Source: Candidatus Doudnabacteria bacterium
Lineage (GTDB): Bacteria > Patescibacteriota > Doudnabacteria > UBA920
Direction: 5' to 3'
Length of the DNA stretch: 64,000 nucleotides
NCBI GenBank assembly: GCA_020850635.1
Contig: JADZEH010000004.1
Location: 11,085 to 75,084 of the forward strand
Of the stretch, positions 25,801-48,688 are shown in pieces. The notes beneath the pieces were generated by a model. It was not told the origin of the DNA. It worked only from the letters and a program-made list of their open reading frames with translations, and did no database searches. Position 1 is the stretch's first letter. Every line of letters begins with the position of its first letter. Position numbers and translations under genes: made by a program.

Positions 25801-26047
25801 TCCACAACAAACTTCCCGCCGTTGGATCATCATAAATTTTAAATTCCATGGCGTAAGTTCCATTCGCCACATTCGTACTAGTACTAACTGCTGTGAGTTT
25901 ACCTTGGAAATTAATTAGCTTTGGGAAAGCAGCGTTCGCTGTTGACTGAAATGAGTACGCTGTTACAAAACCAACCACTATCAAAAGCATGCAGGTTAGC
26001 GCTGCGACGGTTTTAATTATCTGGTTGTGGTTTATTTTTAAACTCAT
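19886..26047 (-). CDS. Giant (2053 aa) secreted tail-fibre-like surface protein
   Basis: Signal peptide (...AYSFQSTANA), Gly/Thr/Ser-rich beta-repeats including GDGRVGIGTSSISAS...LLQVG, and a concanavalin/LamG-like jelly-roll (TISLWFKHSTTAPSGAIDTLF...ITRTNANDVDSWIDGQGM). Also a GHSLG nucleophile-elbow motif (VIYVGHSLGMAELHEH), a C-terminal DLAEYYYS...GQVVVID block and a Pro/Glu-rich acidic tail. Confidence 0.8.
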   Translation of the reverse strand: MSLKINHNQIIKTVAALTCMLLIVVGFVTAYSFQSTANAAFPKLINFQGKLTAVSTSTNVANGTYAMEFKIYDDPTAGSLLWTETYDQPSGSCAKPTVTSGVFNVKLGTCNAITFDVTGGALYLSVNFAPTGVAYDGEMSPRKQLVASAFAFNANNVVGDGRIDIAYAPGTTTNPGAKIDYSPSVSSSNNALQVSSGANVTGAALVVTQAGTGVGINLAGAGGSSRVINSTSSALILQTTTSGNINLDSAGGTLELQDNTNVTGALTISGVLQGGGATATTYSRLGSGTTNHSLGAADDLLVTDDLEVDGDVFFDGNLTVTGTCTGCGGGSQTPWAQDIDADNFSLLDFGPNLTSRAATTIGSANNGSGASGLVTLNSGTGTTSTGGVTIITGNASAGTAGNISLDVGTSTSGNGSILIGTAARTQTITIGNSTGGTITVGASSGSDLVLNDAHWSVSGAGAALFASADVSGVIQAGSSNVNLTDASGYVQHDSLVDCADTQILKWATGGGRWGCAADETGGGGSTLQSSYAADVDGTNATISLTTADDSLVFTNPSSAGTDSAFVVQVDQANTTAAVVGLDIVQQSNAANAVNVTANTIDSEVGLNITANALTSGNGLAIASSSTALTGALAKLTLSGSDAANTGSVLRIDNTGTASATTGLYIDHRATGTGNYALRIDDVSGDTTPFIVDGDGRVGIGTSSISASAATERLLQVGSEERRGNASVYGEIISKGSDDHTPLTGIKDVFVYDTSGDSDGGRWIDWATTDNLSWYAEALDDSASDTCVISSDDRCYKASFPRKALLVVTTDALYIFDAATNDMWMKFSQHSDGYALGADTNNDPSSVIALNGVIYVGANGSSAGGLYAIDFVNDRMWNYNGTSRAAAGVGISGRNSAVTYNVDSNVKLEISPTGTQAEWERVNDVHAVVMSRTQSAVTALGAATNTNPGYGKVFIGLATDSGVTIINPSGLVLNQYSDVTADDYNAVVISSRGFMYALNSTSDQLERWDTIDTDKASEINGTFSRRWDEARATGPALATSAFDVLTGKPDNLEIAERASNNLNTEDVIYVGHSLGMAELHEHTTQLLGWVKYYNSTRQTPMMMLAGINDMVLPMDDTSGTQAQDVSILNTDMAINGTPTLGVDGVQGKAIQFDNTDDFLCSDANQDNTCDLDTAFNMSTVGWTISLWFKHSTTAPSGAIDTLFEKCVTATPGQAIGCVVAYMNTSGQIVVANDDDATWTRPDGGGANSYDITATSTYAYNDNQWHNLIITRTNANDVDSWIDGQGMTLSTATGLTATFDGSQIVTIGASCVTTVTANCGAVTNAWDGAIDDVQYIVGTTTQATMTQLYVRRYFNIERPRATKRTITVANATSATSTSVTDTGESWFANDFAGSILEITGSDDADCVGLTRRISANTADTITFTPAVPGACTMDTSADFEIDPEALYGGSDAVGGIGITGETPLGEARQLCIGTNSGTDTGGVTCYNHQDGPSIVADVYHSQASQTDDDGTDWAGTDYDDIVSMDLSTRTFIIASEAHFTAITEDVRLGQGLDYVANQLYAIRQEIVLDGITAVGSTGIEVGFTGGADLAEYYYSTEALEPGQVVVIDKNGDGDDVVRSTRRYSGGILGVVSTQPGIILGLHAEDGFAIALTGRIPVKFSMENGPVKAGDYLTSASIPGYAMRATGAGPTIGKALTDSIPEQDMAVCSAMGEGLPETTKCGEVSIFVEHGNFSGLPIEQLMQEMRISVSAVGDLIEDSTEGLVEESGVESQALVGTGLDNDIDDSLTTDEKILVFLRHIKAEKVAAGQGVSAELFTDRVSAAFEVISPQVTTGGLRVEAIGKLGGIIDMLSDVTFFGRPYLNNDTAGFALVKAGHTSVDIKFDKEYIEQPVVVASIAGELDNEIIKTGDVEKIKEIQKLQDDLAIELFEQGIQVLVIKKNVFGFTILLNKPAPKDVPLSWIALAVKNPKIFESEGLAEEVEDDTELNPEVLGENTASEEQEPSEGNNEPANETAPPQEETLVEEESPPVEEPAPSVEEQPEQSPPLSEESLPSSE

Positions 26048-26059
26048 ACAATCGATGTA

Positions 26060-26266
26060 CTAGCTTTGAACCTCCGGTGCGGCCACAATAAAACCGCCTA
26101 AAAGCAAAATGGTGTCTTTTGCAAAACGGCGGTCACGACGATTACCAATGCGCACACCGGCAAGAACACCATCGCGTTCCCAATTGCGAATAGTGTTCGG
26201 ATGAACATTCAAGACTTCAGCAGCCTGACGTACAGTCAACAATAACGGTAAATTTCCTATGGACAT
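26060..26266 (-). CDS. Small excisionase-family helix-turn-helix DNA-binding protein
   Basis: LTVRQAAEVLNVHPNTIRNWERDGVLAGVRIGNRRDRRF matches the excisionase/MerR-superfamily HTH pattern. Lies 12 nt upstream of the giant gene. Confidence 0.7.
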   Translation of the reverse strand: MSIGNLPLLLTVRQAAEVLNVHPNTIRNWERDGVLAGVRIGNRRDRRFAKDTILLLGGFIVAAPEVQS

Positions 26267-26425
26267 TTTATTTTATTTTCCGGGTCAAAACAAGAAAGAG
26301 CACCCGGGGTTGCTTGGCTGTTTCAGAAACAAATTTTGGTCTCTGAATTAACTTAAATTGTTTTTTTCTTTCTATTCGCCTGTTAGGTAAGACTGATTTT
26401 GGTCTAACTTAACAAATCTATACTT

Positions 26426-26454
26426 ATTATAGCAAAAATTACGACAATTGTCAA
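26426..26454 (-). promoter_or_regulatory. Consensus sigma70 promoter TTGACA-N17-TATAAT (minus strand), extended -10 TGCTATAAT
   Basis: Reverse complement of 26426-26454 is TTGACAattgtcgtaatttttgcTATAAT, about 160 nt upstream of the HTH gene. Flanking context TCATTGACAA...TTTTTGCTATA is shared with the 38037-38065 promoter. Confidence 0.55.
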
Positions 26455-26566
26455 TGAAAAATGGCGCTATCAAGCCTTATTTTTGTAAATCTCTCTTAAA
26501 AAATTCAAAACCCGCTCATTAAATTTGAACGGGCTTCCAAAATTGCTATCCGATATTTTCTATTCG

Positions 26567-27577
26567 TTACGAGCGGGTACGTTTAAGTATGAATAGAGCA
26601 ATAATTACTGCCGCTCCAAGTAGTAATCCCCCAACAAGCACGACCACGATCAAGATTGTGGTAATCAACTGCCATGGGAAGACCCAAAAGCTTAAAGCCT
26701 CTGTATAATGGCGGGCGGCATCATTGTTGACTGTAAACTGGAGAGTGGCGGTATAACGACCCAAAGCAAAATGATTCCACTGCCACTTTAAGGTTTCGAA
26801 GTAAGACAAATCATCAGGAGCATAAAAGATATCAGTGCTGTGTTGCTCTGTCCTGTCCCCTCCAGACGTAACCCAAGCCGTGGTATAACGGCGAATACTT
26901 CTTGGTAACACACTACCACCGGTACGATTAGCATCAATTACTTTACTAGTGAACCCAAATAAATTTCGGATCGTAATGTCCCCGACTGGCTTCACCCTAT
27001 CTTCACCGCTATTTTGAAAACGATATTCAAACTCAACTGGTAAAGAAGAAAACATCGACTTCTTCTTTGTTGTGTTAAAACTTAAAATTGTTTCCCCTTC
27101 TGTAAAGGCACCGTTCACTCGAAACAAAATTAAAGAACCAACCTGACTCTCAAGTGCGATGTCAACTTCTTCTTCAGAGCTTGGAACATTTTTAGTTGCC
27201 AGGATACCAGCAAAGTACCCACCTGGATCAACATCTCGTGGTACTGTAATTGTAAAATCCACCGTGAGAAATTCTTTCGGGGGAATCTCAACACTTGAAG
27301 GCGCGCTTACCCAACTTGGTAAACCATCACTCCCACGAACAAAAGATGGTTCACCAGTTTCATCTTTAGTTTCAAATTTAACAAACTTAATATAATAAGT
27401 TTGGGTTGTGGTTAATTCATTGAAAAGTTTAAACGACCCGCTCGCTTCACCACCAGGGTCAGCCGCAAGTTCAACTCGGATAGGAGATATCGTTAGAGCC
27501 TCAACCGACTGAGGCAAAAACCACCAACCGCCAAGAACAAACACTGCGCCAAATATTATACCAAGAAATCGTGTCAT
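26567..27577 (-). CDS. Secreted beta-sandwich protein with C-terminal TM anchor and basic tail (CscA/DUF916-DUF3324-like family, paralog 1)
   Basis: Signal peptide, conserved blocks RFQNSGEDRVKPVGDITIRNLFG, ILPRSIRRY..W, GRYTATL, FWVFPWQ, then TM plus KRTRS. Rho-independent-like hairpin downstream (about 26490-26540). Confidence 0.6.
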   Translation of the reverse strand: MTRFLGIIFGAVFVLGGWWFLPQSVEALTISPIRVELAADPGGEASGSFKLFNELTTTQTYYIKFVKFETKDETGEPSFVRGSDGLPSWVSAPSSVEIPPKEFLTVDFTITVPRDVDPGGYFAGILATKNVPSSEEEVDIALESQVGSLILFRVNGAFTEGETILSFNTTKKKSMFSSLPVEFEYRFQNSGEDRVKPVGDITIRNLFGFTSKVIDANRTGGSVLPRSIRRYTTAWVTSGGDRTEQHSTDIFYAPDDLSYFETLKWQWNHFALGRYTATLQFTVNNDAARHYTEALSFWVFPWQLITTILIVVVLVGGLLLGAAVIIALFILKRTRS

Positions 27578-27584
27578 AAATATA

Positions 27585-28526
27585 TTACGAATTACTATTG
27601 CGCGACAGCAACCAGCGATTGTATCGCTTGACTGCAGTATAGCCTAACAAGACCAGAAGTACGAGCACGAAAATACCGACAACAAGTCTTTGCCACGGGA
27701 CTATCCAAAAAACTGTTGTTGTACGAATTTCTAACTTTGGATTGCCATAAAACAATATAGCTGTCGCCGTATAGCGACCAAAGCGCCAGCCTGATTCCCA
27801 GGTGCTTTGGAAGTTACGTTGTGATTCTGGCAGAATAATATTTGCATCACGGTTTACTGGCACGCTGCCAACCTGACGTCCGAACATGTTCTCAATAACC
27901 ACATCGCCTTTTGGTTTGATATGAGCGTTGCCCTGGTTGAAGATTGAAGTAAAAAAATTAACGCTTGAATAATCTAAACTAGGCTCTGCACGAAAGTTTG
28001 TCACTGTTGCACTGTAATTCGCGTTACCTAATTTAGCGATGACCAACACCCCAGCTTTTTGAGTAACTGTAACCGATGTCTCTGCTAGAACCGTGGGACG
28101 GTATGAAAACAACAATCCACCATAATGAGAACCCGGCTCAGCGTCTACTGGTGGTTCAATTGCAAATTGAACTTCCGTTTGGGCGCCTGGCTCAATCGTA
28201 AAATCTGGTTGATTAATAATACGAATCCACGAGCTTAAAGAAAAACGAGGATCGCTTTCCTCTCCGCTATTTAAAAAAACAGTCTCCCCTGTTTCTCCGT
28301 TTGGCACAAAATCATTGATACTAATTTCAATTGGCAGCGGAAGATTTGTTGTATTAGTTAGTGTAATAGTATGGAGTTGCACGTCCCCTGCTTCCAGCTC
28401 AGTTTCGATTAAGAAAGGACTCAAGGCTAAGCCCTGAACCTCTAAACGTTGTTCGCTATTCTGCGCAAATAATTGCAAAGGAAAAATGAACAGAACCAAA
28501 GCCACTATTAAAGTCTTTAAGTGCAT
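27585..28526 (-). CDS. CscA/DUF916-like secreted protein with C-terminal TM anchor (paralog 2)
   Basis: Same architecture and motifs (GDVVIENMFG, ILPESQRNF..W, GRYTATA, FWIVPWQ, TM, KRYNRWLLSRNSNS). Confidence 0.6.
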   Translation of the reverse strand: MHLKTLIVALVLFIFPLQLFAQNSEQRLEVQGLALSPFLIETELEAGDVQLHTITLTNTTNLPLPIEISINDFVPNGETGETVFLNSGEESDPRFSLSSWIRIINQPDFTIEPGAQTEVQFAIEPPVDAEPGSHYGGLLFSYRPTVLAETSVTVTQKAGVLVIAKLGNANYSATVTNFRAEPSLDYSSVNFFTSIFNQGNAHIKPKGDVVIENMFGRQVGSVPVNRDANIILPESQRNFQSTWESGWRFGRYTATAILFYGNPKLEIRTTTVFWIVPWQRLVVGIFVLVLLVLLGYTAVKRYNRWLLSRNSNS

Positions 28527-28527
28527 A

Positions 28528-29616
28528 TTAGTATTGCGCTGAAGTAATGTAAGTTAAAATATTTTGATACGATCCTGACTCCTGCAAGCTCCCAATCTCA
28601 AGTTTGTAGACCAAAGTTGTAGCTTCACTTGTTGCTGGTCCTGTATTACACGCAACCTCAGATGGCGTTGTTGTGATAGCCGCATAAGTATTATTCGCCG
28701 AGAAACGATTAGTACTACCAGTGCATAGAACACTGTCTGTTGTATGATATCCAAACGCGCCAGTAGTTACCGCAACTGGCCAAACATCAGGGCTAGCGTT
28801 GGTACCAGAAACACTATCGATATCAGCACCAGCAGATGTCCTCAATTCGCCATCATGCTGAAGAGTGGTTGTATACCCACTCACACCGTTTGTGCTCACT
28901 GTAACCGTATGAGCCGCTACAGCTGGGGTACTCACAACCAAGCTCCCATAAGTAATGGCGTTACTTGTTGTAGTTATAGTTGTAGTTTCGCCAGCCACAC
29001 TTGTACTCGATGCAACTCCTGAAAACGTTATAGCCAAACTTGGGCTACTTGTACTCGCACTAGCTTCAGAAGAAAAACCTGTCTCAGTGTCTGCTCCATG
29101 ACGAGCTTTGACTTTAATTTTGTAAGTCGTACTTGGAGTTAACCCAACAATTCGTTCACCACTACCGCTTCCCCAGTTAGTAAAAGTTTGCCAGGCTTCC
29201 GTCGTGGAAACAGTATCATCTGTTTGAACATAATTGGTAGTTACAAAGTTATCAGATGAAATCGCAATAGCATACTCCGTATCACTACTGTTACCACCAA
29301 TGGCAATGACAAAATCAAGTGAGTTATACAAAGTCCCACCTGTGTTGGTTAAGGTTGGCGCTCCAGGAACTCCCGGATAGGCCGGCCAAATAAACCCGAG
29401 TAAGGAACGAAAGTTAGTTGAACTTGAACCACTATCACTTACTGCCCCAATAGAATCCACCGAGCGATAGTTAGCCGAAGCACTGTTTTCGCCACCTCCG
29501 TCAATGGTCGCATCTTCAATACGATAGTTGCTTCCAGTTAAAGTTTCAGCCAAAACTGGAGTCGCCAAAACTGAGAAGACTAAAGATAAAATTGTAATTT
29601 TTTGTATCGAGTTCAT
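28528..29616 (-). CDS. Secreted protein with FN3-like middle and a conserved about 150-aa C-terminal domain (WxL-like candidate; paralog B1)
   Basis: Signal peptide MNSIQKITILSLVFSVLATPVLA; the C-terminus ...GSYQNILTYITSAQY matches that of 30943-32034. The start is moved to the second ATG (29616) because an extended -10 (TGGTATAAT, 29634-29642) lies 3 nt from the track's first ATG (29631). Confidence 0.55.
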   Translation of the reverse strand: MNSIQKITILSLVFSVLATPVLAETLTGSNYRIEDATIDGGGENSASANYRSVDSIGAVSDSGSSSTNFRSLLGFIWPAYPGVPGAPTLTNTGGTLYNSLDFVIAIGGNSSDTEYAIAISSDNFVTTNYVQTDDTVSTTEAWQTFTNWGSGSGERIVGLTPSTTYKIKVKARHGADTETGFSSEASASTSSPSLAITFSGVASSTSVAGETTTITTTSNAITYGSLVVSTPAVAAHTVTVSTNGVSGYTTTLQHDGELRTSAGADIDSVSGTNASPDVWPVAVTTGAFGYHTTDSVLCTGSTNRFSANNTYAAITTTPSEVACNTGPATSEATTLVYKLEIGSLQESGSYQNILTYITSAQY

Positions 29617-29633
29617 ATGGTTTTTATACATTC

Positions 29634-29642
29634 ATTATACCA
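29634..29642 (-). promoter_or_regulatory. Extended -10 element TGGTATAAT(GAAT) upstream of B1
   Basis: Reverse complement of 29634-29642 is TGGTATAAT. The same TGnTATAATGAAT occurs upstream of the CAP gene (39625-39633). Confidence 0.4.
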
Positions 29643-29656
29643 TATAGCCTAAGTTA

Positions 29657-29728
29657 GCAGGTGGTTGATGTTGTACTAAAACCAGTCGCTCCGCTCCGAT
29701 GGTTTTCTTAACAACATCAACCACCTGC
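29657..29728. repeat. 72-nt perfect-stem hairpin element (copy 1): 18-bp outer stem GCAGGTGGTTGATGTTGT/ACAACATCAACCACCTGC enclosing a conserved core with inner stem AAAACCA/TGGTTTT and loop GTCGCTCCGCTCCGA
   Basis: A 49-nt core is identical to the reverse complement of 39701-39749. The outer stems differ between copies yet each pairs perfectly. Confidence 0.6.
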
Positions 29729-29843
29729 ACCAATAGGCATTCAAAGGTAAAGACGATTCCCTTGTTGTTAAGAAAAGTATTTGGTCCCCTCTACTTTTCG
29801 TACAATAAGGGAATCGGATTTATCAAAAAAACCGCCCGGTTTC

Positions 29844-30920
29844 TTAGAGCGGTTCTTTGTCTTTCTTAGTTCGTCTTTTTTTAGGAGATTTGTTATTAGT
29901 CGCCTGATTGATAATGTAACGGTTGTATCGCTTAATACTGAAACGTCCAACAATAAAGGCGACAATTAATCCTGAAATTACAACAGTTATCAATTGCCAT
30001 GGAATGACGTAGAACGTGTAGCTTTTTGAGTCCGACTTTAATTCTTTGGTTCCAAAGACAACACTTAGCGATGCTTTGTATTTTCCAAAAGCAAAATTGT
30101 GCCATTGATACTTTACTTGATCCCAAAATCCAGGACCCGCTGGGCTTGGAATTTCCGGATCGGCTCCCTGTTGCAAGTCTCCCCAGCTACTAGCCCAAAC
30201 AGTTTCAAAACGCCTAATGCTTTTTGGCAAAATACTTCCATCAACAGGGTTGGCTGGCAGAATCTTTGTCGTACGTCCGAACATGTTCGTAATCAAAACA
30301 TCACCAACTGGTCTTAAATGATCTTCACCAACATTTTGAAAACGATAGTAAAAATAAACCGGGAGAGCTGTAAAAAAACGCTTTTTGTCTTTAGTCGCAA
30401 ATTCTAAGATATTAGCGTTTTGAACAAAATCACCATTTACTCGAAGTAACAACAGGGTTCCTAACTTTGAACTAATGCCCACCTGACCACCCTGGTCAGC
30501 ATTGGGAGGGGTTGTTTCTAAAAACATCGCAGCGAAATGACCACCAGGGTCAGCGTTCTCCGGCACATTAACTTTAATAGGAATTTCCAAAGTCTCACCA
30601 GGGCCAATAGTAATGACTTCCGCAACTTCAACCCAAACCGCTAAATCTTCTTTACGATTTGTAAACCGAGGACTACCACTTTCATCCTGAGATTCGAAAT
30701 TTTGTAAATTAGTATAAAAAGTTCGAGATTGTTTTTCCTCATTACTAATTTTCAAAATTTCAGTTACCGACTCTCCAGGATTAGCGTTAATTTCTATTCT
30801 GGGGGTTGTGGTTATGGCTTGTACGGGTCGGACAAAAGCCCCAAAAATTAAAACGAAAACCGCTCCGACAAGTAACGCGGCGCGGCTATATCTTAATTTG
30901 AAAATTTCTGGAAAATTCAT
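29844..30920 (-). CDS. CscA/DUF916-like secreted protein with C-terminal TM anchor and Lys-rich tail (paralog 3)
   Basis: Motifs RFQNVGEDHLRPVGDVLITNMFG, ILPKSIRRFETVW, GKYKASL, FYVIPWQ, TM, then KRYNRYIINQATNNKSPKKRRTKKDKEPL. Confidence 0.6.
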   Translation of the reverse strand: MNFPEIFKLRYSRAALLVGAVFVLIFGAFVRPVQAITTTPRIEINANPGESVTEILKISNEEKQSRTFYTNLQNFESQDESGSPRFTNRKEDLAVWVEVAEVITIGPGETLEIPIKVNVPENADPGGHFAAMFLETTPPNADQGGQVGISSKLGTLLLLRVNGDFVQNANILEFATKDKKRFFTALPVYFYYRFQNVGEDHLRPVGDVLITNMFGRTTKILPANPVDGSILPKSIRRFETVWASSWGDLQQGADPEIPSPAGPGFWDQVKYQWHNFAFGKYKASLSVVFGTKELKSDSKSYTFYVIPWQLITVVISGLIVAFIVGRFSIKRYNRYIINQATNNKSPKKRRTKKDKEPL

Positions 30921-30942
30921 TTAGTAAACAATCCCAAACAAT

Positions 30943-32034
30943 TTAAAATGTACCTGTGGCGATGTATGTGATGTTCGTACTATAACTACCAGCCTCTGTG
31001 TTTCCCGCGATGTTGGCGAGATAAAAAGCACTTACAGTTTCAGTATTAGTTGGTGTTGTTCGTGAAATAATCGTCGTGGTCGTGCCAGCAACAAAGGCCC
31101 AATCTCGGTTTCCTGGTGTAGAGTTGTGATCATAACCAGTTGCCACGGTAGAAGAGCCATTCGTGGAAATACCTAAACCAAACTCTTCTGCAGACTGAGT
31201 ACCATCAGCATCGTTAGTAATAGCGGCAACATCAATAGTATTACCACCACTGGTTAAAGTGGCTCCATTGTAACTTAGGACATACCCACTAGCGGCGTTA
31301 GTAGCAACAGCTAAAGTATGAGCGGCGGCAGAGTCTGTACCAGAACCATTAGTATCACCAGTAGCAAATCGGGCTGCTGTTGAACTAAGTGAGCCAAACC
31401 CGATTGTTGTATCAGAAACGCTAAAGGTAATTGTAGGGTCAACTGTAGCTGTAACGTTAACCTGATCTTCTGTAATAATATCTACAGCAATTGTCCCTGT
31501 GTCACCAAAGCTACCACTAATGGCAATCGTATCGTCATCATCAATTGCGCCATTACTAATTTGGTTTGTGCCAGTTGCCTGACTTACAGCATTTGTACCA
31601 ATACGGAAACGGACGCAACGCCCAGCCGTGACTGTACCAGTACCTGAAGTTAGAGTTACAGTTGTTGCGCTGTCCCCATCTGCTCCCCAAGTCGCACCAG
31701 AGGGAGAAGCGGCCAAAGTTCTTTCTGTAAATGATGCTGTACTACAGTTACTTGAGTCACCTTCAGCAAAGTCAATATCAGTATGAACTATATTGGTAAC
31801 GTTTGTGAAGTCAGCTGAAAAAGTTAAAATAATAGTTTGACCCGCGGTTAATCCGGTAGGTGTGACAAACTTGATTTCATGATTAGCTGCCTCGCTCGCC
31901 TTTAAACGAGACATGACGTCAGATAAACTTGTCACTGAAGCGGCTTGTGCAACAGGTACTCCCTGAAAAACAACGCTAGCAACCAATGCCACCATCGCAA
32001 TCTTACTATATATACGCTTCGTTTTTTGTTTCAT
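30943..32034 (-). CDS. Secreted protein sharing the C-terminal domain of 28528-29616 (WxL-like candidate; paralog B2)
   Basis: Signal peptide ...VPVAQA; the C-terminal block AHTLAVATNAASGY...AGSYSTNITYIATGTF aligns with AHTVTVSTNGVSGY...SGSYQNILTYITSAQY of B1. Confidence 0.55.
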   Translation of the reverse strand: MKQKTKRIYSKIAMVALVASVVFQGVPVAQAASVTSLSDVMSRLKASEAANHEIKFVTPTGLTAGQTIILTFSADFTNVTNIVHTDIDFAEGDSSNCSTASFTERTLAASPSGATWGADGDSATTVTLTSGTGTVTAGRCVRFRIGTNAVSQATGTNQISNGAIDDDDTIAISGSFGDTGTIAVDIITEDQVNVTATVDPTITFSVSDTTIGFGSLSSTAARFATGDTNGSGTDSAAAHTLAVATNAASGYVLSYNGATLTSGGNTIDVAAITNDADGTQSAEEFGLGISTNGSSTVATGYDHNSTPGNRDWAFVAGTTTTIISRTTPTNTETVSAFYLANIAGNTEAGSYSTNITYIATGTF

Positions 32035-32060
32035 TATTTTATGAAGTAATATTTAGGTTA

Positions 32061-32090
32061 ATTATAGCAGATTTTTTGACTTTTGTCTAA
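32061..32090 (-). promoter_or_regulatory. Promoter for the B2-A3 pair: TTAGACA-N17/18-TGCTATAAT (minus strand)
   Basis: Reverse complement reads TTAGACAaaagtcaaaaaatctgcTATAAT, 27 nt upstream of the 32034 start. Confidence 0.45.
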
Positions 32091-32105
32091 CCTGTGTGGA
32101 TAAAA

Positions 32106-35100
32106 TTACTCCACCAAGCTAACTTCAGTTCCAGATTCTACTGAATCTTGAACCTCGGGTTCTTCTTGGGTTTCCTCTGGTTCAGTAACAGGCATTTGTT
32201 CATCGGGAGATTCTTCGCTTACAACGCCGGCAACAGACCCTTCGTCAATTACTGGTTCCGGGTCCTCTGATAATGAATCCGATTCTGACGACTGCTGTCC
32301 AGCAATAACTAACTTGATAGTGCTAGTATTACCATTTGACACAGTCAGTTTTGCATCCTGTCCTGCAAACGCATGCCAGTTAAATTCAACTGCTTCGTTT
32401 TGATCGTCGCTAATCTTAATGGTAAAGCCAGATGAGTCTTCATCAACCACCGTGTAGCGGAAACTATTATCCAATGCGGCTTCACCACGAGGACTAATCG
32501 TGACGATTGGCTGATACTCATACGGCTTAGTAAAGTTTACTCTCACCTCTGTTTCCCCAGAAAGAATTTTTACCTGACCTACTGAGTCTGAGGTTAAATA
32601 CAAATGACCCTTGATGACAATCGGTGTATCAATGTTTCCACCTAAATTGCCTTGTAAACTATTTACTGAAACTTGTAAGCTCTCAATTCTGTCTTGTTGT
32701 TCGTGAATCGCATTAACTAAGATCGGAGTGAAACCAACATAGTTCACAGATTTTAATCCAGTCTTTGGATCAATCTTAACTAGCTCAGGTGAAATCACTT
32801 CAACCTCTTGTGCCAGAAAACCAATTCTCAAAGCATCATCAGTTTGAGACTTCCAACGGAAATTAACCCCCCTAAAATTAAGAACTTTCTCTAAGGCACT
32901 TTCAATTGTTGCTACATCCTCTTTAAGACGTTGGTCAGAGGTACACACCAAAGCGGTACTCGTTGGATCAATATCGCATGACCCATCAGAATCAGTAAAA
33001 CGAGCCACCACACCTGCCGCACCCAACACCACATGAAGCGGATAACTAGGAGTGGTTATGCCGATACCGACATTTCCCGCGCTAAATATTGCAGCATAAT
33101 TATCTGTACCACCTGAAGCACTTACAGACAAACCCACATTGACTGCAGTAGTTCCCGTATGTGTATTAGCGACTTGAAGACCATATGTGGTTTGGCTCGC
33201 GCCATTATTGGAACCCGAGGTAGCAATATTTAAGACCGTTTGATTAGTTAAAGCCTTGGAGGTACCAGAAATTTGTAAGTCAACTAGCTTGCCAGAAGTT
33301 AAGTTGGATGACGCAGCATACAATCCAGTACCAGTGGTTAAAGAGTTAACATTTAGTGCTAAGGCAGAAGCGGTTGTAACTTGAGTCGTATTTGCAGAAG
33401 TAACCGACATTGTTCCTGAACTTTGAATATATCCCTTGACCGCAGCAATTGCACCAGAGGAGTTGACTTGGAATAAGTCACCACTTCCAACGGTCAGCAA
33501 CGCGGTAGGTGAAGCATCTCCAATCCCGACATTGCCACCCATAAACTGAGCAGCGTAATTATTTGTCGCACCGGTTTGAGCGTTTACAGTTAGACCAAAA
33601 CTATTAGTTGCTGTCGAAACAGCACCGGCTGAAATCAAAATACCATGGGTATTCGTAATAGTTGCGTTCGTACTTTTGACTGGAGCACCTGTTATTCCTA
33701 AAGTCGCCGCGTTGGTTAATGTGGAAGCTCCGTTAAATGCATAAGTCGGTGCATTGATTAATACTGCGCGTTGTGTCGCTAAGCTACCAGTACTAAAAGT
33801 TACAGTTCTGTTGAGTGCAAAATTTATATCCGCGGCTTCGATTGTAGAATCTAAGTTAACATGTGCTGGCCCTGTAACGGCGAGTAAATTTGGGGAGCCA
33901 GAACCAGATGGATCGGGGGCCATAATTAATCCGCCAGTTTCGTTGACAGTAGCCAAAGCAGAACCGCCTGAATTTTGCCACTCCTGCAAATTTGCCGACT
34001 GACCACCACTTGAAGCCGATACAGCAATATTATATTTGTCAGACAAATACTTTTCTACGGATTCTTTGTCGGCAATACTTAACGCTGAGCTATAGACTAT
34101 AATTTCCGCGATATCTCCCTCCCAATATTGTGATACTCCTAAGTAGTGATAAGTATCCCCAATCCAATTAAAAGAACTATTTGCAGTTCCCACGATTGTT
34201 ATAATACTATAAGTATTTGCCGGTTTTTGAATATTAAGAACTGAGGTATAAGTACCATTTGTATAACCCTGACCACTAGCAATGTCGCCGTTTGTACCTC
34301 CTAATGAATTAATCAAATCAGTACCAGTTTCACCAAAATAATCAAAACCGGTGCTCTCTCCAACTGGTGACTCCCCAGCAGGCGAACTCCCATCAACATG
34401 TCTGATTACCATTATCAGAGTCCTAGAATTAGTCACTACTGAATCCATAGCCAAAAAATCATCGGTACCATCGAAGCGAACCACAGGCTTGCCGTTAGTT
34501 CCACTAGCAATATAAAGAGGCTGACTTGCTCCAGTTCCTTGAGTAGCATCATTACCCGACCCGCTTGAATTAGTCCAGCTTGCAACAGGGTCATTATTAT
34601 TTAAAGACAAACTATCAGCCTTTAACCACACCACTAAACCACTGATATCATCAGGTTCAATTCCACTACCTAAAGGCGAACCTTTAACAATTATGCCTTT
34701 AGTATTCGCTGTGCCTGTTACAACTTTCAGCCTTGCATCAGGTATGGTAGTGCCTATACCCACGCTTCCATTTTCAAAGATGGCAGCATAGTTATTAGTT
34801 CCACCTGAAGCAGAAGCATATAAACCGACATTAGTTGAGTCTGTCCCTGTATGAGTATTAGTAATATATCCACTGTAAGTTGTTTGGGTGGAAGTAGCAT
34901 TGGCTCCAGATAAACTAAGAGATAAAAGTTTTTGTGTGTTGCTTGCAGCAGCGGTTGTGTTGGCTGATAAAGCTAAACCTGTCCCACCTGCTAAAGTGTC
35001 CCAGGCCCAATTCTGCTGATAATTGGTATTATCAATAGAATTTGTTGCTGTGGCGGCAGTCAACCCTGACAACGAGCCACCGCCTACACCGTCACAAGCC

Positions 35101-37670
35101 TGCCATTCGAAATCGCCAGTAGTTGATTCGTAAGTTAAACATTCTTCATCAACAGAAGAGTCCACTGCTTTTAAATCTGCTTCAGTAACTTTCTCATCAA
35201 CAATCGCGGTGGCTCCAGTACTATCAATCACAATATCTCCACTCATTGCTACGGGATTATAGTTTGTACCATCCGCCACTAGAATAAATCCAGAGGTATT
35301 TGTGCCCATAAATAAATCATCGCCCGAAATAGTAAGATCGCCATCTAGTTGGACGTTACCAACACTGGTGATAAGAACGCGTTCCGTACCAGCCATACTA
35401 ATAGATAAATCATCTGATCCACCAAGCACAGCAATCTGCACTTTCTCAACACCAGCCTTATAAATGTAATACCCAGCTTGTGAAGCAGCGTCTCCATCAA
35501 CCTGAATTAATGCATGCCCAGCAGCATTAGTGTACGACATACCTACTGCCGCGGTTCCCACAACGCTCAGACCTGCAAAAGTTGGCAATGAAGTCGTTGT
35601 TAAATTTTGTCCTGTATTAAAAGTTAATTGCGAATCGCTAATCGAGTCGGCAGCAACAGAAATGCTAACAGCAGCGGTTTCTGATCCTGAACCACTTACA
35701 GAAATCTGGCTGTCGCCAGCAATAGTCGCAACATAGTTGCCAGCAGTATCAGTACCCAGCGCTACACTATTGGATTGAATCGTAGTTGCACCAGTATTAT
35801 CGATTGCAATATCACCAGACACCGACACAAACACAGGAACGCCACTGACATTACCAATAAGCAACTGTCCGCTCGTTGGCGCAGCCGTTACCTGCACTGC
35901 CGAAGTTCCATTCCCGTAAACCAAACCATTTAAAGAGAGAGACGACGTTCCTGTTCCACCATTCGAAACAGCAAGTACACCAGTCACATCGGTAGCTAAG
36001 TTAGTTGTACCACCACCAATAGCTCCCCAAGTTGCACCGTTATAGACATTAAATGCATCTGTTGTTGAGTTGTATACTAAAAGACCTGTCGCTGGGCTAC
36101 TAATCGCATCGCGTTCGACAGTCGTCATCCGTGGTGCTAAAAACCCACGTGTGGTTGAATTTGCTTGTAAGATTGCAGAAGCATCCAAAGTGCCTTCACC
36201 AATGAGCAGTTCACTTGAATCAAAACTACTACCTGAGGATACCGAGCTTGAACCAGCAGCACCACGTGCTCCCGTTTCACCAGTTGCCCCCTGTGGACCT
36301 TGTTCGCCCGTGTCCCCTTTGTCACCTTCTAAAAAGTCGAAAAGACCTAAGGCAATAAATCGATTCATCACTCTTGTTACTGCAGTCTCAATAGCACTTT
36401 CACCAAAGTTTACTGTTGTTGTCGGGGTCGGTGGTGTTATTGGTGTTGAGACAATAGGAACTTCTTCTGGCACGTAGACTATCGTAGGTGTTGGCTCTGG
36501 CTCAGAGCAAACAACTAACCAACACAAAACTTTCTCCCACCAAGGAATTTCGGTACTCTCTCCCAAAACACGACCACTATATTGGCCAGTCTCCGCGTTT
36601 GCTATTTTTGTTTGTGCTGAAAAATCATCAACTGTTAATTGAGGAGAAAATCTGTCTTGTAAATATTTACCATTAGTAGAAAAATTTTCAAGCAAGGGAC
36701 TCTGTAGCATGGCAACAGTTACATTGTCTGCTTTTTTAGCCACGATCTCAGCCAGCATCAAAGTCTTGTTAAACAATGTACTTGCACTGACTGCTACACT
36801 ACTATCAACACTCGCAACTATAAACTGACCTTCATTAAATATTTGATTAACAGAAACAGTAACTCTATCTTGCGAAGATACAAGATCATTTACAACAAAA
36901 TTTGCTAAAACAATATCAGCGTTATCGAGTATGTTATTACTAAATTTTTTAACATCTTCTATTGTCACCTTTGGCACACTCACTGTTGGAACAATATTAT
37001 CAAAAGCACGATGATTCTCTAAACTTTGACTAGCAAGGGTTTGCCCTGTAGTTATAAACTGGACAGACCCTGAGAACTGAGCGAGGACCTTGCCATCACT
37101 AACCCAAGTTGCGACTACCGAATCAACAATTCCAGCAACACGATCAAACGCTCCACTAATACTATTTGGTAAATTGCCAATATCGACCAATACCTGCTCA
37201 TACGACAGCTTGATCAAACTTCCTAAAGTTGAACTATTACTCCCTACTTCGGAAACTAATTCTTGTGAATATTGTTTGGAGTATTTCTTTGTGTTCCGGA
37301 TACCGATTGAAGCATGATCAGCAACGAACTGTTCTGCCTTTGATGTTATATCCTGTGCATCATAATAAAGATTTGCAAATTTTCGCTCATGCCACTCACT
37401 AAATTTAGTGAAGGTTACATAGCCTTCATAAATTGATTCTAGAATAAACTTGCTAGTTTTCGCATCGTAATAATTTAGAAATGCCGAGGTGTCTCCAATT
37501 ATGCCATAGGCTTGATTTTGCCAAGAAGAAACTATTGTCCCTGAATTATTAATTGAGGAATACTCTATATTGGATGGTTGGCTGGCGTATACTCTGTTTG
37601 AACTTAGTGACGCACATAATATAACAACAACCAAGAGGCTATAGACAAGTTTATTTATAACTTTCATCAT
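32106..37670 (-). CDS. Giant (1854 aa) secreted phage-tail-fibre-like protein: collagen-like GXY run, tail-fibre repeats, LamG-like domain, C-terminal S74-type intramolecular chaperone domain, acidic tail
   Basis: Signal peptide ...SSNRVYA; GDKGDTGEQGPQGATGETGARGAAG (collagen triplets); repeats GSVGIGTTIPDARLKVV / GNVGIGDASPTALLTVG / GNVGIGITTPSYPLHVV. LamG-like region LVVWLKADSL...YWEGDIAEIIVYSSAL; endosialidase-chaperone motif SDQRLKEDV...RIGFLAQEVEVISPELV. Confidence 0.85.
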   Translation of the reverse strand: MMKVINKLVYSLLVVVILCASLSSNRVYASQPSNIEYSSINNSGTIVSSWQNQAYGIIGDTSAFLNYYDAKTSKFILESIYEGYVTFTKFSEWHERKFANLYYDAQDITSKAEQFVADHASIGIRNTKKYSKQYSQELVSEVGSNSSTLGSLIKLSYEQVLVDIGNLPNSISGAFDRVAGIVDSVVATWVSDGKVLAQFSGSVQFITTGQTLASQSLENHRAFDNIVPTVSVPKVTIEDVKKFSNNILDNADIVLANFVVNDLVSSQDRVTVSVNQIFNEGQFIVASVDSSVAVSASTLFNKTLMLAEIVAKKADNVTVAMLQSPLLENFSTNGKYLQDRFSPQLTVDDFSAQTKIANAETGQYSGRVLGESTEIPWWEKVLCWLVVCSEPEPTPTIVYVPEEVPIVSTPITPPTPTTTVNFGESAIETAVTRVMNRFIALGLFDFLEGDKGDTGEQGPQGATGETGARGAAGSSSVSSGSSFDSSELLIGEGTLDASAILQANSTTRGFLAPRMTTVERDAISSPATGLLVYNSTTDAFNVYNGATWGAIGGGTTNLATDVTGVLAVSNGGTGTSSLSLNGLVYGNGTSAVQVTAAPTSGQLLIGNVSGVPVFVSVSGDIAIDNTGATTIQSNSVALGTDTAGNYVATIAGDSQISVSGSGSETAAVSISVAADSISDSQLTFNTGQNLTTTSLPTFAGLSVVGTAAVGMSYTNAAGHALIQVDGDAASQAGYYIYKAGVEKVQIAVLGGSDDLSISMAGTERVLITSVGNVQLDGDLTISGDDLFMGTNTSGFILVADGTNYNPVAMSGDIVIDSTGATAIVDEKVTEADLKAVDSSVDEECLTYESTTGDFEWQACDGVGGGSLSGLTAATATNSIDNTNYQQNWAWDTLAGGTGLALSANTTAAASNTQKLLSLSLSGANATSTQTTYSGYITNTHTGTDSTNVGLYASASGGTNNYAAIFENGSVGIGTTIPDARLKVVTGTANTKGIIVKGSPLGSGIEPDDISGLVVWLKADSLSLNNNDPVASWTNSSGSGNDATQGTGASQPLYIASGTNGKPVVRFDGTDDFLAMDSVVTNSRTLIMVIRHVDGSSPAGESPVGESTGFDYFGETGTDLINSLGGTNGDIASGQGYTNGTYTSVLNIQKPANTYSIITIVGTANSSFNWIGDTYHYLGVSQYWEGDIAEIIVYSSALSIADKESVEKYLSDKYNIAVSASSGGQSANLQEWQNSGGSALATVNETGGLIMAPDPSGSGSPNLLAVTGPAHVNLDSTIEAADINFALNRTVTFSTGSLATQRAVLINAPTYAFNGASTLTNAATLGITGAPVKSTNATITNTHGILISAGAVSTATNSFGLTVNAQTGATNNYAAQFMGGNVGIGDASPTALLTVGSGDLFQVNSSGAIAAVKGYIQSSGTMSVTSANTTQVTTASALALNVNSLTTGTGLYAASSNLTSGKLVDLQISGTSKALTNQTVLNIATSGSNNGASQTTYGLQVANTHTGTTAVNVGLSVSASGGTDNYAAIFSAGNVGIGITTPSYPLHVVLGAAGVVARFTDSDGSCDIDPTSTALVCTSDQRLKEDVATIESALEKVLNFRGVNFRWKSQTDDALRIGFLAQEVEVISPELVKIDPKTGLKSVNYVGFTPILVNAIHEQQDRIESLQVSVNSLQGNLGGNIDTPIVIKGHLYLTSDSVGQVKILSGETEVRVNFTKPYEYQPIVTISPRGEAALDNSFRYTVVDEDSSGFTIKISDDQNEAVEFNWHAFAGQDAKLTVSNGNTSTIKLVIAGQQSSESDSLSEDPEPVIDEGSVAGVVSEESPDEQMPVTEPEETQEEPEVQDSVESGTEVSLVE

Positions 37671-37918
37671 GCCAGCCTCCTTTCAGATTTTTCTAAAGAA
37701 GCTAGAATGCGACGATGTTTTTGTTCTTGAGACTTTACATAAGACAAAACGGCCTCACGTGTTGTGAGCCAGTCTCGAGATATTTTAATCGCTTTCAGTT
37801 TGCCTTTACGAGCAAGTAAGCTCAGATATTCCTGTGAGTACGGTGTATTTGTCGCCGCTTCACCAATGGAAATCAAAGAACCAGATGCCAAAAAACGGCT
37901 CTTTTCCTGTTCGGACAT
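37667..37918 (-). CDS. Small excisionase-family HTH DNA-binding protein, translationally coupled (ATGA overlap) to the giant gene
   Basis: ISIGEAATNTPYSQEYLSLLARKGKLKAIKISRDWLTTREAV matches the same HTH family as 26060-26266. Its stop overlaps the start of 32106-37670 by 4 nt. Confidence 0.7.
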   Translation of the reverse strand: MSEQEKSRFLASGSLISIGEAATNTPYSQEYLSLLARKGKLKAIKISRDWLTTREAVLSYVKSQEQKHRRILASLEKSERRLA

Positions 37919-38036
37919 TGTCTCTGCTTATGTTTTGTTTTTGTTTCTATCTACGAACTATCGAGCAACCGCGCATTCCTAAACTAATTTTGGCTTAAGC
38001 ATGCACTATCGATCATCCGATACTTTTCTAAATTCA

Positions 38037-38065
38037 GTATAGCAAAAAAAACGTGTTTTGTCAAT
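38037..38065 (-). promoter_or_regulatory. Near-consensus sigma70 promoter TTGACA-N17-TATACT (minus strand), paralogous to 26426-26454
   Basis: Reverse complement is TTGACAaaacacgttttttttgcTATACT, with shared flanks TCATTGACAA and TTTTTTGCTATA. About 120 nt upstream of HTH2. Confidence 0.55.
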
Positions 38066-38122
38066 GATTTTCAATGTACTAAACAAAAAACCTCCTAAAC
38101 AGGAGGTCTTAAAATTTACATT

Positions 38123-39469
38123 TTATCCAAAATACCACAACAGCGTCGCGAAGATTGCCACAAAGGAACCGTTCGCTACCAAATTTACATGTTGGATATG
38201 TCGATGAACCGCAATCGCGACAATTAATGAGACTAAGACGAGAGACACAAATACTAAATAAAATTTACTTTCGAATTGTTTGACGTCTAAAGTTCTTCCA
38301 AGAACAGATATTGTCGCTCCGGCAACTTCTGGTGCAGTACTATAATTTCCAACCAAGCTACTAGAAAAACTTGCTAAACGAACTGAACCAAGCTTACCAT
38401 CAAGTCCATACGCTTCAATCATCATAGAGTTGTTTTCTGAAGCAAGCTCAGATAACGGTATAGTCCCCTTCCAACTATAATCACTCACTGGATCAAGCAT
38501 GATCGCTTTTTGACCATACTGCACAATAACGCGACTTGCGTTGGGTGCCCAAGCTAATATCTCAACATTCGATCCATACACTGAAACTAATGTTGGAATT
38601 TCTGTTCCAGCAATCAGCGCAGAATTTTCTTGCTCGGGTGTGGCCACCGGAACTACTTCAGCAGGCCCAGCCTGAACCTCTGCTTGTGCCACTGGCTGAG
38701 CAGTTGGCTGAGCAGCGGGAGCTTGAGCTACTGTAGTTGGCGCTGGTTGTGGTGGAGCTTCTACTGCTGGTTCAACTTGAGTAGGAGTAGCTAAGGTTTG
38801 AATTGGTTGGTCAGAGCTAGCGCCAAACATCTGGACCACAAAAATACTGCTATGACCCTCAAATTGACCCTGAGCAATACCGATCCCAATTTCTTCAAAA
38901 TTTTCATTTAAAATATTAGCTCGATGTCCAGGACTGTTCATCCAAGCATCTTCCACGTTTTCAGCTTGTACAAAATCAACTGCCAAGTTTTCACCGGCAA
39001 TCACATACTTATAACCAGCGGCTTTGATGAAATCCCAAGGAGTTCGCCCATCTGGCGAATTATGAGCAAAATACTGATTAGCCAGCATGTCGTCTGCCTT
39101 AGCCTGTGCCGCTGCTCTTAATTGTGAGTTTTGGGTTACAGTCCCAATTCCATATTCAATACGGGATTCATTGGTTAAACTGATAATGTTTTCAGGAGTA
39201 ATCGCTGAGGAAAATGCTGGAGATACTGGTCCAAGACTTAAAAGTACAAGACCACCAATCTTTACCGTAACCAGCAACAACGAAAACAAAGCCACCGCCC
39301 GATGCCCAAGCATGTGAGGATGGTAGTTATTTCGATGATGCGGCACAAAATGGTCTTTAATATGACGACCAAATTGCTTGAACGATGGGAACATCTCCCC
39401 ATACGGTTCATATTGCACACTTCCAATAAAAGGAATTGCGATACTCATTTTTGTTTCTCGAACTTTCAC
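38123..39469 (-). CDS. CAP/SCP/PR-1-like domain protein with Pro/Ala/Gln-rich linker and C-terminal TM anchor
   Basis: CAP motifs YKYVIAGENLAVDF...WMNSPGHRANIL...IGIGI; linker PQPAPTTVAQAPAAQPTAQPVAQA; hydrophobic C-terminus. Confidence 0.75.
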   Translation of the reverse strand: MKVRETKMSIAIPFIGSVQYEPYGEMFPSFKQFGRHIKDHFVPHHRNNYHPHMLGHRAVALFSLLLVTVKIGGLVLLSLGPVSPAFSSAITPENIISLTNESRIEYGIGTVTQNSQLRAAAQAKADDMLANQYFAHNSPDGRTPWDFIKAAGYKYVIAGENLAVDFVQAENVEDAWMNSPGHRANILNENFEEIGIGIAQGQFEGHSSIFVVQMFGASSDQPIQTLATPTQVEPAVEAPPQPAPTTVAQAPAAQPTAQPVAQAEVQAGPAEVVPVATPEQENSALIAGTEIPTLVSVYGSNVEILAWAPNASRVIVQYGQKAIMLDPVSDYSWKGTIPLSELASENNSMMIEAYGLDGKLGSVRLASFSSSLVGNYSTAPEVAGATISVLGRTLDVKQFESKFYLVFVSLVLVSLIVAIAVHRHIQHVNLVANGSFVAIFATLLWYFG

Positions 39470-39624
39470 GTTTGCAGGATTTTATGCAAACGCTATTTGC
39501 TGGCAAGAAAAAAACTAGAGACAAGCTCTTCATTTCTTTCAACCAACTATATTTACTTGTATTTTTGTTTCACTTGTATCGATGAACTAATTTTGGCTCA
39601 TCAATATTCGTTAAATCTAAATTC

Positions 39625-47232: not shown

Positions 47233-48688
<1,456 letters not shown>

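Follow-up and report, generated by a model that had tools for sequence, protein, structure and literature searches.

A candidate promoter-leader cassette ahead of surface-protein genes in Patescibacteria

Several described systems resemble parts of the locus that we analyze here. Sigma-70 promoters with an extended -10 element (TGn, or the Gram-positive TRTG element at -16) combine TTGACA-17-TATAAT with a TG one base before the -10 hexamer and a T-rich spacer end, and they are placed after a terminator and before an operon. CccR from Yersinia pseudotuberculosis, a Fic protein with a C-terminal helix-turn-helix (HTH) domain, represses its own promoter via a palindrome with a long spacer (AGATAATCAT-N26-ATGATAATCT; PMC9755527). 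In tethered one-component regulators such as ToxR and CadC, a cytoplasmic DNA-binding domain of the OmpR type is followed by one transmembrane segment and an extracytoplasmic part. Lastly, protein-binding or stabilizing hairpins in 5' leaders (lambda boxB/nut, the MS2 operator, iron-responsive elements, and the ompA and aprE leaders) are short and have a freely covarying stem with an invariant loop and closing pair. We compared these systems to a stretch of 64,000 nucleotides (nt) from a Candidatus Doudnabacteria bacterium (contig JADZEH010000004.1, positions 11,085 to 75,084; hereafter, the window), in which two strong promoter-like sites each precede a small HTH gene and a giant gene.

We think it rather probable that each of these sites belongs, as the promoter, to a copy of a modular promoter-leader cassette (the window has a third copy as well), which Saccharibacteria-like Patescibacteria would use for genes of the envelope or cell surface. 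As we read it, the cassette would consist of a consensus sigma-70-type promoter with an extended -10; a transcript start at a conserved T-A step 7 nt past the -10; an RNA stem-loop whose stem is free to vary and whose loop (CAAAAUUA) and closing C-G pair are fixed; and an unstructured CA-rich tract, GAAACAAAAA(C), in place of a Shine-Dalgarno sequence. If the first gene encodes a small MerR/excisionase-type HTH protein, then that protein's own box would lie between about +7 and the hairpin and would most likely be its operator, and the HTH gene would be translationally coupled, or fused, to a gene for a giant membrane-anchored surface protein. The hairpin and the CA-rich tract would act on the mRNA of every gene that bears the cassette. 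Conservation, covariation, and the joint occurrence of box and HTH are direct observations, whereas we infer the transcription start, binding of DNA by the HTH, the direction of regulation, and what the hairpin does. The promoters are ordinary in kind; more interesting is the lineage-wide modular cassette, whose hairpin is supported by covariation and lies outside Rfam. In addition, we obtained a candidate operator for an uncharacterized family of HTH proteins. Patescibacteria, including the Saccharibacteria, are attached to the bacteria that serve as their hosts. Foremost among the candidates for host contact are their giant surface proteins, and almost nothing is known about how the genes for these proteins are expressed.

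Predicted promoters of the HTH-giant modules and the spread of the cassette

The two modules contain these genes:

19886..26047, minus strand: giant1, 2053 amino acids (aa), with an N-terminal membrane anchor
26060..26266, minus strand: HTH1, 68 aa, of the HTH_17/MerR type, unrelated in sequence to HTH2
32106..37670, minus strand: giant2, 1854 aa, with an N-terminal membrane anchor and Peptidase_S74 near the C-terminus
37667..37918, minus strand: HTH2, 83 aa, a winged helix of the MerR/excisionase type, whose stop codon overlaps the start of giant2 (ATGA)

The predicted promoter elements upstream of the HTH genes are:

26507..26537, minus strand: intrinsic terminator of the upstream gene for a 336-aa surface protein
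26449..26454, minus strand: -35 of module 1, TTGACA, also in the HTH1 orthologs
26426..26434, minus strand: extended -10 of module 1, TGCTATAAT, also in the HTH1 orthologs
38087..38110, minus strand: intrinsic terminator of the upstream CAP-domain gene (a 10-bp stem and then a T run), which marks a new transcription unit
38059..38064, minus strand: -35 of module 2, TTGACA, kept in orthologs
38036..38044, minus strand: extended -10 of module 2, TGCTATACT, kept in orthologs
38029, minus strand: predicted transcription start of module 2, the A of the conserved T-A step, 7 nt past the -10 (the equivalent positions are 26419 for module 1 and 39618 for the third copy)

An initial annotation of this DNA reported near-identical consensus promoters at the two sites. 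Site 1, TTGACA-attgtcgtaatttttgc-TATAAT on the minus strand at 26454..26426, is just as it was described. At site 2, the sequence (TTGACA-aaacacgttttttttgc-TATACT) was right and the coordinates, 38065..38037, were one base too high; the true position is 38064..38036 on the minus strand. Both sites do have a 17-nt spacer and a TGC before the -10, which forms an extended -10 of the TGn type, and their hexamers score 12/12 at site 1 and 11/12 at site 2. The distance from the -10 to the HTH start codon, which had been put at 120-160 nt, is about 159 nt for module 1 (start at 26266) and about 117 nt for module 2 (start at 37918). "Near-identical" was an overstatement: 22 of 29 aligned positions are the same, and these (the -35, the T-rich end of the spacer, the TGn, and the -10) are the positions that are common to any strong promoter.

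Pairs of consensus hexamers were also said to be rare in AT-rich genomes. The window has more of them than chance would give: there are 4 matches to TTGACA-N17-TATAAT with at most one mismatch, versus 0.47 expected, and none of 100 shuffles gave 4. With a G+C content of about 41% in the window, the genome is not strongly AT-rich. The extended -10, TGCTATAMT, occurs 6 times (1.14 expected), and all 6 copies are on the minus strand, the one that encodes nearly all of the window's genes. Both sites lie directly 3' of the intrinsic terminator of the preceding gene. It is very likely that both sites are true promoters, at the head of the two HTH-giant operons.

To see the cassette in other genomes, we used the 93 homologs of HTH2 that we found; their profile retrieved 80 loci from species-representative genomes. 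About 28 orthologous HTH2 genes have TTGACA-17-TGCTATAMT upstream, as do both HTH1 orthologs (in loci L081 and L082), and for 19 of the 28 HTH2 orthologs, the promoter scores at least 11/12 and has the TG. Nearly all of the roughly 28 full-length HTH2 orthologs have the same order of elements: TTGACA-17-TGCTATAMT, 12-14 nt, AGTATCGGATAGC, a hairpin of the CAAAAU type, GAAACAAAAACAAAA, about 10-15 nt, and ATG. These HTH-giant operons are from metagenome-assembled genomes (MAGs) of Saccharibacteria or other Patescibacteria. In the orthologous leaders and in cassettes from metagenomes, TA(G/C)A is conserved 5-8 nt past the -10. Among 33 promoters in the ortholog loci that score at least 11/12 and have the TG, 14 are elsewhere than upstream of the HTH gene, so this type of promoter is generic for the lineage. 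The promoter itself has nothing unusual compared to other extended -10 promoters; its unusual feature is the fixed leader that accompanies it in many genes and genomes.

The third copy in the window precedes a different kind of gene:

39625..39653, minus strand: promoter of the third cassette, TTGATT-17-TATAAT with TGC (TGCTATAAT)
38123..39448, minus strand: CAP-domain membrane protein behind the third cassette, with homologs behind the same cassette in metagenomes

We also searched metagenome contigs with the pattern TGCTATAMT-N15-45-CCAAAAYYWG-N5-35-GAAACAAAAA. This found 23 matches, versus a rough expectation of well below one (the size of the collection is not given). By a covariance model, 22 of the 23 matches are hairpins, and these precede about 21 distinct genes for surface proteins. 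The other match (L083) lies in coding-like sequence and has no stem, so we rejected it as a chance match. The cassette-bearing genes from metagenomes encode HTH2-type proteins, which stand alone or are joined to a transmembrane segment and a giant ectodomain; membrane proteins with a fused HTH of another variant; membrane proteins with a CAP domain that are homologous to the window's; one LamG-domain protein; and other proteins with N-terminal signal or anchor segments. There is a gene-specific box between the promoter and the hairpin only where an HTH gene follows.

The leader hairpin and the CA-rich tract

The window has four leader hairpins. Hairpin 1 of module 1 overlaps a candidate operator and is listed with the boxes below; the others are as follows, with the loop in parentheses and the score from the covariance model:

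26322..26347, minus strand: leader hairpin 2 of module 1, TTCAGAGAC-(CAAAATTT)-GTTTCTGAA, whose stem covaries in L081 and L082; 25.7 bits
37973..38004, minus strand: leader hairpin of module 2, GCATG-CTTAAGC-(CAAAATTA)-GTTTAGG-A-ATGC, with the loop at 37992..37985; 27.1 bits
39577..39606, minus strand: hairpin of the third copy, TATTGATGAGC-(CAAAATTA)-GTTCATCGATA, without a TATCGGATA box; 27.2 bits

The four stems differ, and all four loops have the same 8 nt, CAAAAU(U/C)(A/U), closed by a C-G pair (C-CAAAAUUA-G). In an alignment of 17 leader hairpins, 86.6% of stem cells are paired, as compared to 51% after shuffling (0 of 500 shuffles did as well), and the covariation score is 0.93 versus 0.22; in controls with the structure slid, 31-45% of cells are paired. 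As an independent test, we used the 22 hairpins from metagenomes, which were chosen by their promoter, loop, and A-rich tract only, so that the stem was unconstrained beyond the closing pair. The six unconstrained pairs are formed in 88.6% of cases, versus 51.6% for shuffled sequences (0 of 500), and the covariation score is 1.03 versus 0.28 (slid controls, 35-46%). If the structure is offset by one column, then 41.6% of cells are paired, which is the background level. When we scanned the 64-kb window with a covariance model of the 17 hairpins, we found exactly the four leader hairpins at 26-27 bits, and the next match was at 16 bits. The pairing of the stem is kept by compensatory changes, which argues for a structured RNA hairpin. 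Also, the loop, which is asymmetric, lies on the sense strand in every case, downstream of a promoter, so the element probably acts at the level of RNA. No Rfam family matched the hairpin at its gathering threshold; with E values up to 10, there was only sub-threshold noise.

A tract that is rich in A or CA, GAAACAAAAA or a variant, follows each of the four hairpins:

26358..26373, minus strand: A-rich tract of module 1, AGAAAGAAAAAAACAA
37932..37947, minus strand: CA-rich tract of module 2, GAAACAAAAACAAAAC, 13 nt before the ATG of HTH2, without a Shine-Dalgarno sequence
39562..39571, minus strand: CA-rich tract of the third copy, GAAACAAAAA; a second copy at 39457..39449 abuts the ATG of the CAP gene

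Just 11 of 47 crude gene calls in the window have a Shine-Dalgarno-like sequence, although the 3' end of the 16S rRNA has CCUCCUUU. With such a sequence missing from most of the window's genes, the CA-rich tract is probably there for initiation that does not depend on one. The leader of the CAP gene also contains an upstream open reading frame of 41 codons (MKSLSLVFFLPANSV..., 39408-39533, minus strand), which lies between the two GAAACAAAAA tracts and overlaps the start codon of the CAP gene.

What might the hairpin do? That the loop and closing pair do not vary suggests that a trans-acting factor recognizes them, and our preferred guess is that the hairpin is a binding site for a factor that co-ordinates the translation or stability of mRNAs for surface proteins. 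This would be similar to the known protein-binding or stabilizing hairpins in 5' leaders. Unlike those, the cassette's hairpin has no Rfam match, is tied to a CA-rich tract rather than to a Shine-Dalgarno sequence, and is linked to surface-protein genes of Patescibacteria.

A less likely account is that the hairpin is a generic stem-loop that stabilizes the mRNA, as in the ompA and aprE leaders, and that composition alone keeps the loop as it is. The hairpin is stable, near the 5' end, and ahead of highly expressed envelope genes, and A-rich loops of a similar kind are seen in some of the lineage's terminators. For example, the intrinsic terminators at L014 1954-1981 and L104 4370-4399 have loops (AAAATT and AAAACTTT) that resemble the leader hairpin's, a hint that the lineage may favor such loops in general. 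Composition does not account well for a closing C-G pair and a CAAAAUUA loop that are nearly invariant over unrelated genes from many genomes while the stems change freely, and roughly 12-20 unpaired nucleotides precede the stem.

It is more doubtful still that the hairpin is a signal for processive antitermination or pausing, like the boxB of lambda nut, the Bacillus EAR element, or the leader hairpins of LoaP, that helps to transcribe very long genes for surface proteins. In favor of this idea, a hairpin with a conserved loop lies in the 5' leader of operons with genes of 5.5-6.2 kb, and known antitermination elements are found in the leaders of long operons for surface polymers. Against it, the same hairpin precedes ordinary genes of 280-500 aa; we did not identify a cognate NusG paralog or an N-like factor; and every copy of the hairpin comes with a CA-rich tract close to the start codon, which speaks for translation.

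We considered and rejected three other ideas about the hairpin. It is not a terminator or attenuator, as it is followed by an A- or CA-rich tract instead of a U run and was not in the list of terminators. Pairing of the loop with 16S rRNA is not convincing: the best case is 8/10 to an internal segment of the 16S. And an RRM protein encoded nearby (39834..40145) was dropped as the hairpin's partner because its gene is not syntenic in any of 82 loci. That gene (39834-40145, minus strand) encodes an RNA-binding protein of 103 aa with an RRM_1 domain, has its own TGCTATAAT promoter (-10 at 40249-40241), and lies immediately upstream of the three hairpin-bearing units.

Candidate operators and their HTH proteins

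We identified these boxes in the window:

38006..38023, minus strand: HTH2-type box, GTATCGGATGATCGATAG, candidate operator for HTH2, at about +7..+24
26381..26414, minus strand: HTH1-type box and hairpin 1, TGTTAAGTTAGAC-(CAAAATCA)-GTCTTACCTAACA, candidate operator for HTH1; covariance model score of 26.7 bits
26545..26556, minus strand: ATATCGGATAGC, which matches the HTH2-family box at 11/12 positions and lies past the stop codon of the gene for the 336-aa protein and before its terminator, about 90 nt upstream of the -35 of module 1

The consensus of the HTH2-family box is AGTATCGGATAGC, with the core GTATCGGATAG. The 9-mer TATCGGATA is strongly enriched near these genes: in 746 kb of loci that were chosen by protein similarity, there are 110 copies (about 5.7 expected), which are spread over 64 of the 80 loci, and nearly all of the copies are just upstream of a gene that bears an HTH2-type domain. 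This extends beyond the cassette. In other Patescibacteria, small HTH genes are preceded by TATCCGATA-N3-TATCGGATA palindromes. Fic proteins (with the motif HPFxDGNGR) of DPANN archaea, Chloroflexota, and spirochaetes end in the HTH2-type domain, and the genes for these are preceded by TATCGGATA-N15-TATCCGATA, sometimes in several copies. Two cases are L076 5040-5175 (a Leptospirales MAG) and L075 788-820 (an Undinarchaeota MAG), where the Fic-HTH gene follows one to several such palindromes. Since these groups do not share their promoters or leaders, what unites them is the protein domain, and TATCGGATA is probably the operator of this HTH domain. The Fic-HTH protein and its palindrome form a candidate cross-domain pair of regulator and operator that seems to be undescribed.

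CccR is the closest precedent, as it too has the HTH domain at the C-terminus of a Fic protein and a spaced palindrome just upstream of its gene. The motif and the spacing (TATCGGATA-N15-TATCCGATA) are different, though, and we found no sequence similarity of the HTH2 domain to a solved structure. Also, in the window, the domain is a free protein of 83 aa that is coupled to a giant surface protein, without Fic: the motif HPFx(D/E)GNGR is absent from the window's HTH2 and is present only in distant homologs. A literature search on the motif and on promoters, leaders, and RNA motifs of Saccharibacteria turned up nothing relevant but CccR; its coverage was incomplete, so novelty is not proven.

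Within the lineage, boxes change with the HTH proteins. Among the metagenomic cassettes, the TATCGG box is present in 5/5 leaders of HTH2-type genes and in 0/17 others. The HTH1 box is a palindrome (TGTTAAGT...ACTTAACA; TGTTAAGT...ACCTAACA at module 1, at about +7 to +24), and the sequence of the outer arms of hairpin 1 is conserved in three HTH1 orthologs. In L081 and L082, the promoter, hairpins, and A-tract are kept, and the TATCGG box is replaced by an invariant AAGTATAGATTTGTTAAGTTAG...CTTACTTAACAG. L084 and L103 have yet another HTH variant and another box, GTGAGTTGG. In other words, when the type of HTH changes, the box changes, and the promoter, hairpin, and A-tract do not. Furthermore, the N-terminal region of giant1 is homologous to giants that lie behind HTH2-type genes in nine other genomes. 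Because the N-terminus of giant1 is related to these and the HTH1 orthologs keep the cassette, it seems that in this lineage the HTH and its box are swapped jointly while the rest of the cassette is retained. The ATATCGGATAGC copy, which is absent from the HTH1 orthologs L081 and L082, is possibly a distal HTH2 site or a relic.

HTH1 matches the Pfam family HTH_17 (PF12728) at 38.9 bits, above the gathering threshold of 27; its exact product was not on record when we looked it up. A protein identical to HTH1 is encoded in an NCBI MAG that bears the label Candidatus Doudnabacteria. For HTH2, searching sequences from the Protein Data Bank with its profile found nothing meaningful. Its AlphaFold2 model is confident (pLDDT, or predicted local distance difference test, of 91). 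The model has a beta-alpha-alpha-beta-beta wing, as in solved members of HTH_17 and the MerR-excisionase group, and a long C-terminal helix. Foldseek matched it to the RdfS excisionase, TraN, BldC, and RacA at probabilities of about 0.87-0.99. HTH2 is similar in size to BldC, Xis, RdfS, and TraN, and its predicted fold matches theirs (probability 0.91-0.99), with root-mean-square deviations of 1.8-2.7 Å over about 50 residues for BldC and TraN and 5.5 Å over 65 residues for RdfS. The long C-terminal helix sets it apart from them, and a role in development or excision is not implied. BldC and Xis bind head-to-tail, and the direct repeats of the box in L012 and L017, with a 14-nt period, recall that mode.

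We predict that HTH2 binds GTATCGGATAGC DNA. Since +7..+24 is within the footprint of RNA polymerase, a protein that is bound there would block the polymerase, and negative autoregulation of the HTH-giant operon is the most economical reading. The initial annotation had also proposed an autoregulatory circuit. The circuit is plausible; the site is not the one that was suggested, as the better candidates are downstream of the -10.

In 28 of 28 orthologs, a giant open reading frame comes next after the HTH gene, either overlapping its stop codon or joined to it by fusion. Most genomes have separate genes with an overlapping ATGA; in L023 (5980-9196), L089, L091, and L103, one reading frame encodes the HTH, a transmembrane segment, and a giant protein. 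In the fused homologs, a single transmembrane segment directly follows the HTH, and the window's giants begin with that segment, which suggests a split bitopic regulator-adhesin. The order in the fused homologs L089, L091, L103, and L023 (cytoplasmic HTH, one transmembrane segment, and a large extracytoplasmic part) is that of ToxR and CadC. In contrast to these, the DNA-binding fold of the HTH2 type is MerR/Xis-type rather than OmpR-type, a giant adhesin-like protein makes up the extracytoplasmic part, and in the window, there are two separate and translationally coupled genes. A bolder proposal, which we consider speculative and on balance unlikely, is that the HTH-giant pair is a split membrane-tethered transcription factor, in which the HTH would report the production, insertion, or engagement of the giant adhesin to its own promoter via GTATCGGATAG, and that the CAAAAUUA hairpin and CA tract would be the recognition element of a Patescibacteria-wide, post-transcriptional regulon for the surface proteome.

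Several points weigh against the cassette as we describe it. The start site and the use of the promoters are predictions. HTH2 scores just 18.9 bits against HTH_17, below the threshold of 27, and its Foldseek E-values are weak (at least 0.03). The window's HTH2 box departs from the consensus, as a 5-nt insertion shifts the ATAG (GTATCGGAT-GATCG-ATAG). The HTH1 operator is based on three sequences, and this "operator" is the same sequence as an RNA hairpin. In Saccharibacteria, the HTH2 box is usually single or a direct repeat, is on the transcribed strand, and is often partly paired downstream, as might be expected if it had a role in RNA. Finally, the hairpin begins about 12-20 nt from the predicted 5' end, which is a poor fit to a classic 5'-terminal stabilizer, and AAAAYUU loops in some of the lineage's terminators imply that the loop preference might be partly generic.

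If the GTATCGGATAG box acted in RNA, then it would be a 5'-proximal element that works with the hairpin, and not a DNA operator. Besides its strand, its location inside the predicted transcript and its predicted pairing with sequence past the hairpin fit this idea, to which we give little weight. The same 9-mer forms inverted repeats, in both orientations, upstream of genes for this HTH domain in distant bacteria and archaea that do not share the promoter or the leader. In the orthologs, the distance from the box to the -10 is fixed at 12-14 nt while the distance to the hairpin ranges from 5 to 60 nt. And the predicted fold of HTH2 is that of proteins that bind double-stranded DNA.

Very unlikely, in our view, is the model from the initial annotation, in which the two promoters are duplicates that are specific to one island and their shared flank, TCATTGACAA, is an operator half-site for the adjacent HTH proteins. 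TCATTGACAA does occur exactly twice in the window, at sites 1 and 2 and nowhere else, and both sites head HTH-giant modules. If one mismatch is allowed, there are 12 copies versus 7.3 expected, which is not significant. TCA precedes TTGACA in just 1 of about 20 orthologous promoters and in neither of the HTH1 orthologs, and the rest of the shared flanks (TTGACAA and the T-run before TGC) is generic in the strong promoters of this lineage. The two HTH proteins are unrelated, which makes a common operator unlikely. Nor is the promoter specific to an island: the same cassette is widespread, ahead of unrelated genes in the window, in other genomes, and in metagenomes, as a generic promoter would be. 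The TCATTGACAA operator is already largely refuted by these comparisons.

Similarly, there is very little chance that the two sites are just the residue of a recent segmental duplication of the HTH-giant module, with no special function. The gene order is the same in both modules, and the giants share C-terminal and repeat regions at 28-33% identity. We rejected a recent duplication because BLASTP finds no similarity between HTH1 and HTH2 and because the giants are alike only locally (about 28-33%). Also, when the upstream regions are aligned, identity is limited to the -35, the -10, the hairpin loop (the CCAAAAT block), and the A-rich tract, and these same elements precede the unrelated CAP gene and unrelated genes elsewhere.

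Least probable of all is that the promoters belong to an integrated mobile element, with the HTH proteins as its excisionases: HTH_17 is an "excisionase family" domain, the closest solved fold is the RdfS excisionase, and there are two tRNA genes at 17.4-17.9 kb, but we saw no integrase, the coupling of HTH and giant is kept across 28 species (with fusion in some), and a collection of viral sequences had no match. We rejected a phage origin because the cassette did not match anything in that collection, and we dropped the idea that HTH2 controls the CAP gene via an ATCGATA-like sequence because CAP-type leaders from metagenomes share no box.

If the cassette is as we propose, then it offers three testable handles: a portable consensus promoter; the candidate operator TATCGGATA, whose HTH domain family is common to Fic proteins of bacteria and archaea; and a covariation-supported hairpin that marks mRNAs for surface proteins. 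Scanning complete genomes with the covariance model could delimit a "surface regulon" in organisms that are difficult to grow, and the first genetic systems for these bacteria could use the cassette to drive expression.

Other genes and sites in the window

Between the two modules (26567-32034, minus strand) are five consecutive genes, which encode proteins of 313-367 aa with N-terminal signal or anchor segments; three of these (358, 313, and 336 aa) also have a C-terminal membrane anchor. The first of the five genes has its own promoter, TAGACA-17-TGCTATAAT (32089..32061), without a hairpin. Homologs of these proteins are encoded 2-3 kb upstream of the HTH in about nine other genomes.

A complete 16S rRNA gene is at 47233-48695 (minus strand). 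We did not detect 23S rRNA anywhere in the window, so the rRNA genes appear to be unlinked, or else the 23S is over 15 kb away. Directly downstream of the 16S gene is purL (42975-46868, minus strand), which encodes a single-chain FGAR amidotransferase of 1297 aa with GATase_5, AIRS_C, and FGAR-AT domains. Genes for de novo purine synthesis are unusual in this group, and the G+C content of purL (about 50-55%, versus about 41% for the genome) suggests that it was acquired horizontally. Another promoter-like match, TTGACA-17-TATCAT at 42462..42434 on the minus strand, contains a perfect palindrome of 19 nt, TATACCCCCTAGGGGTATA (42438-42456).

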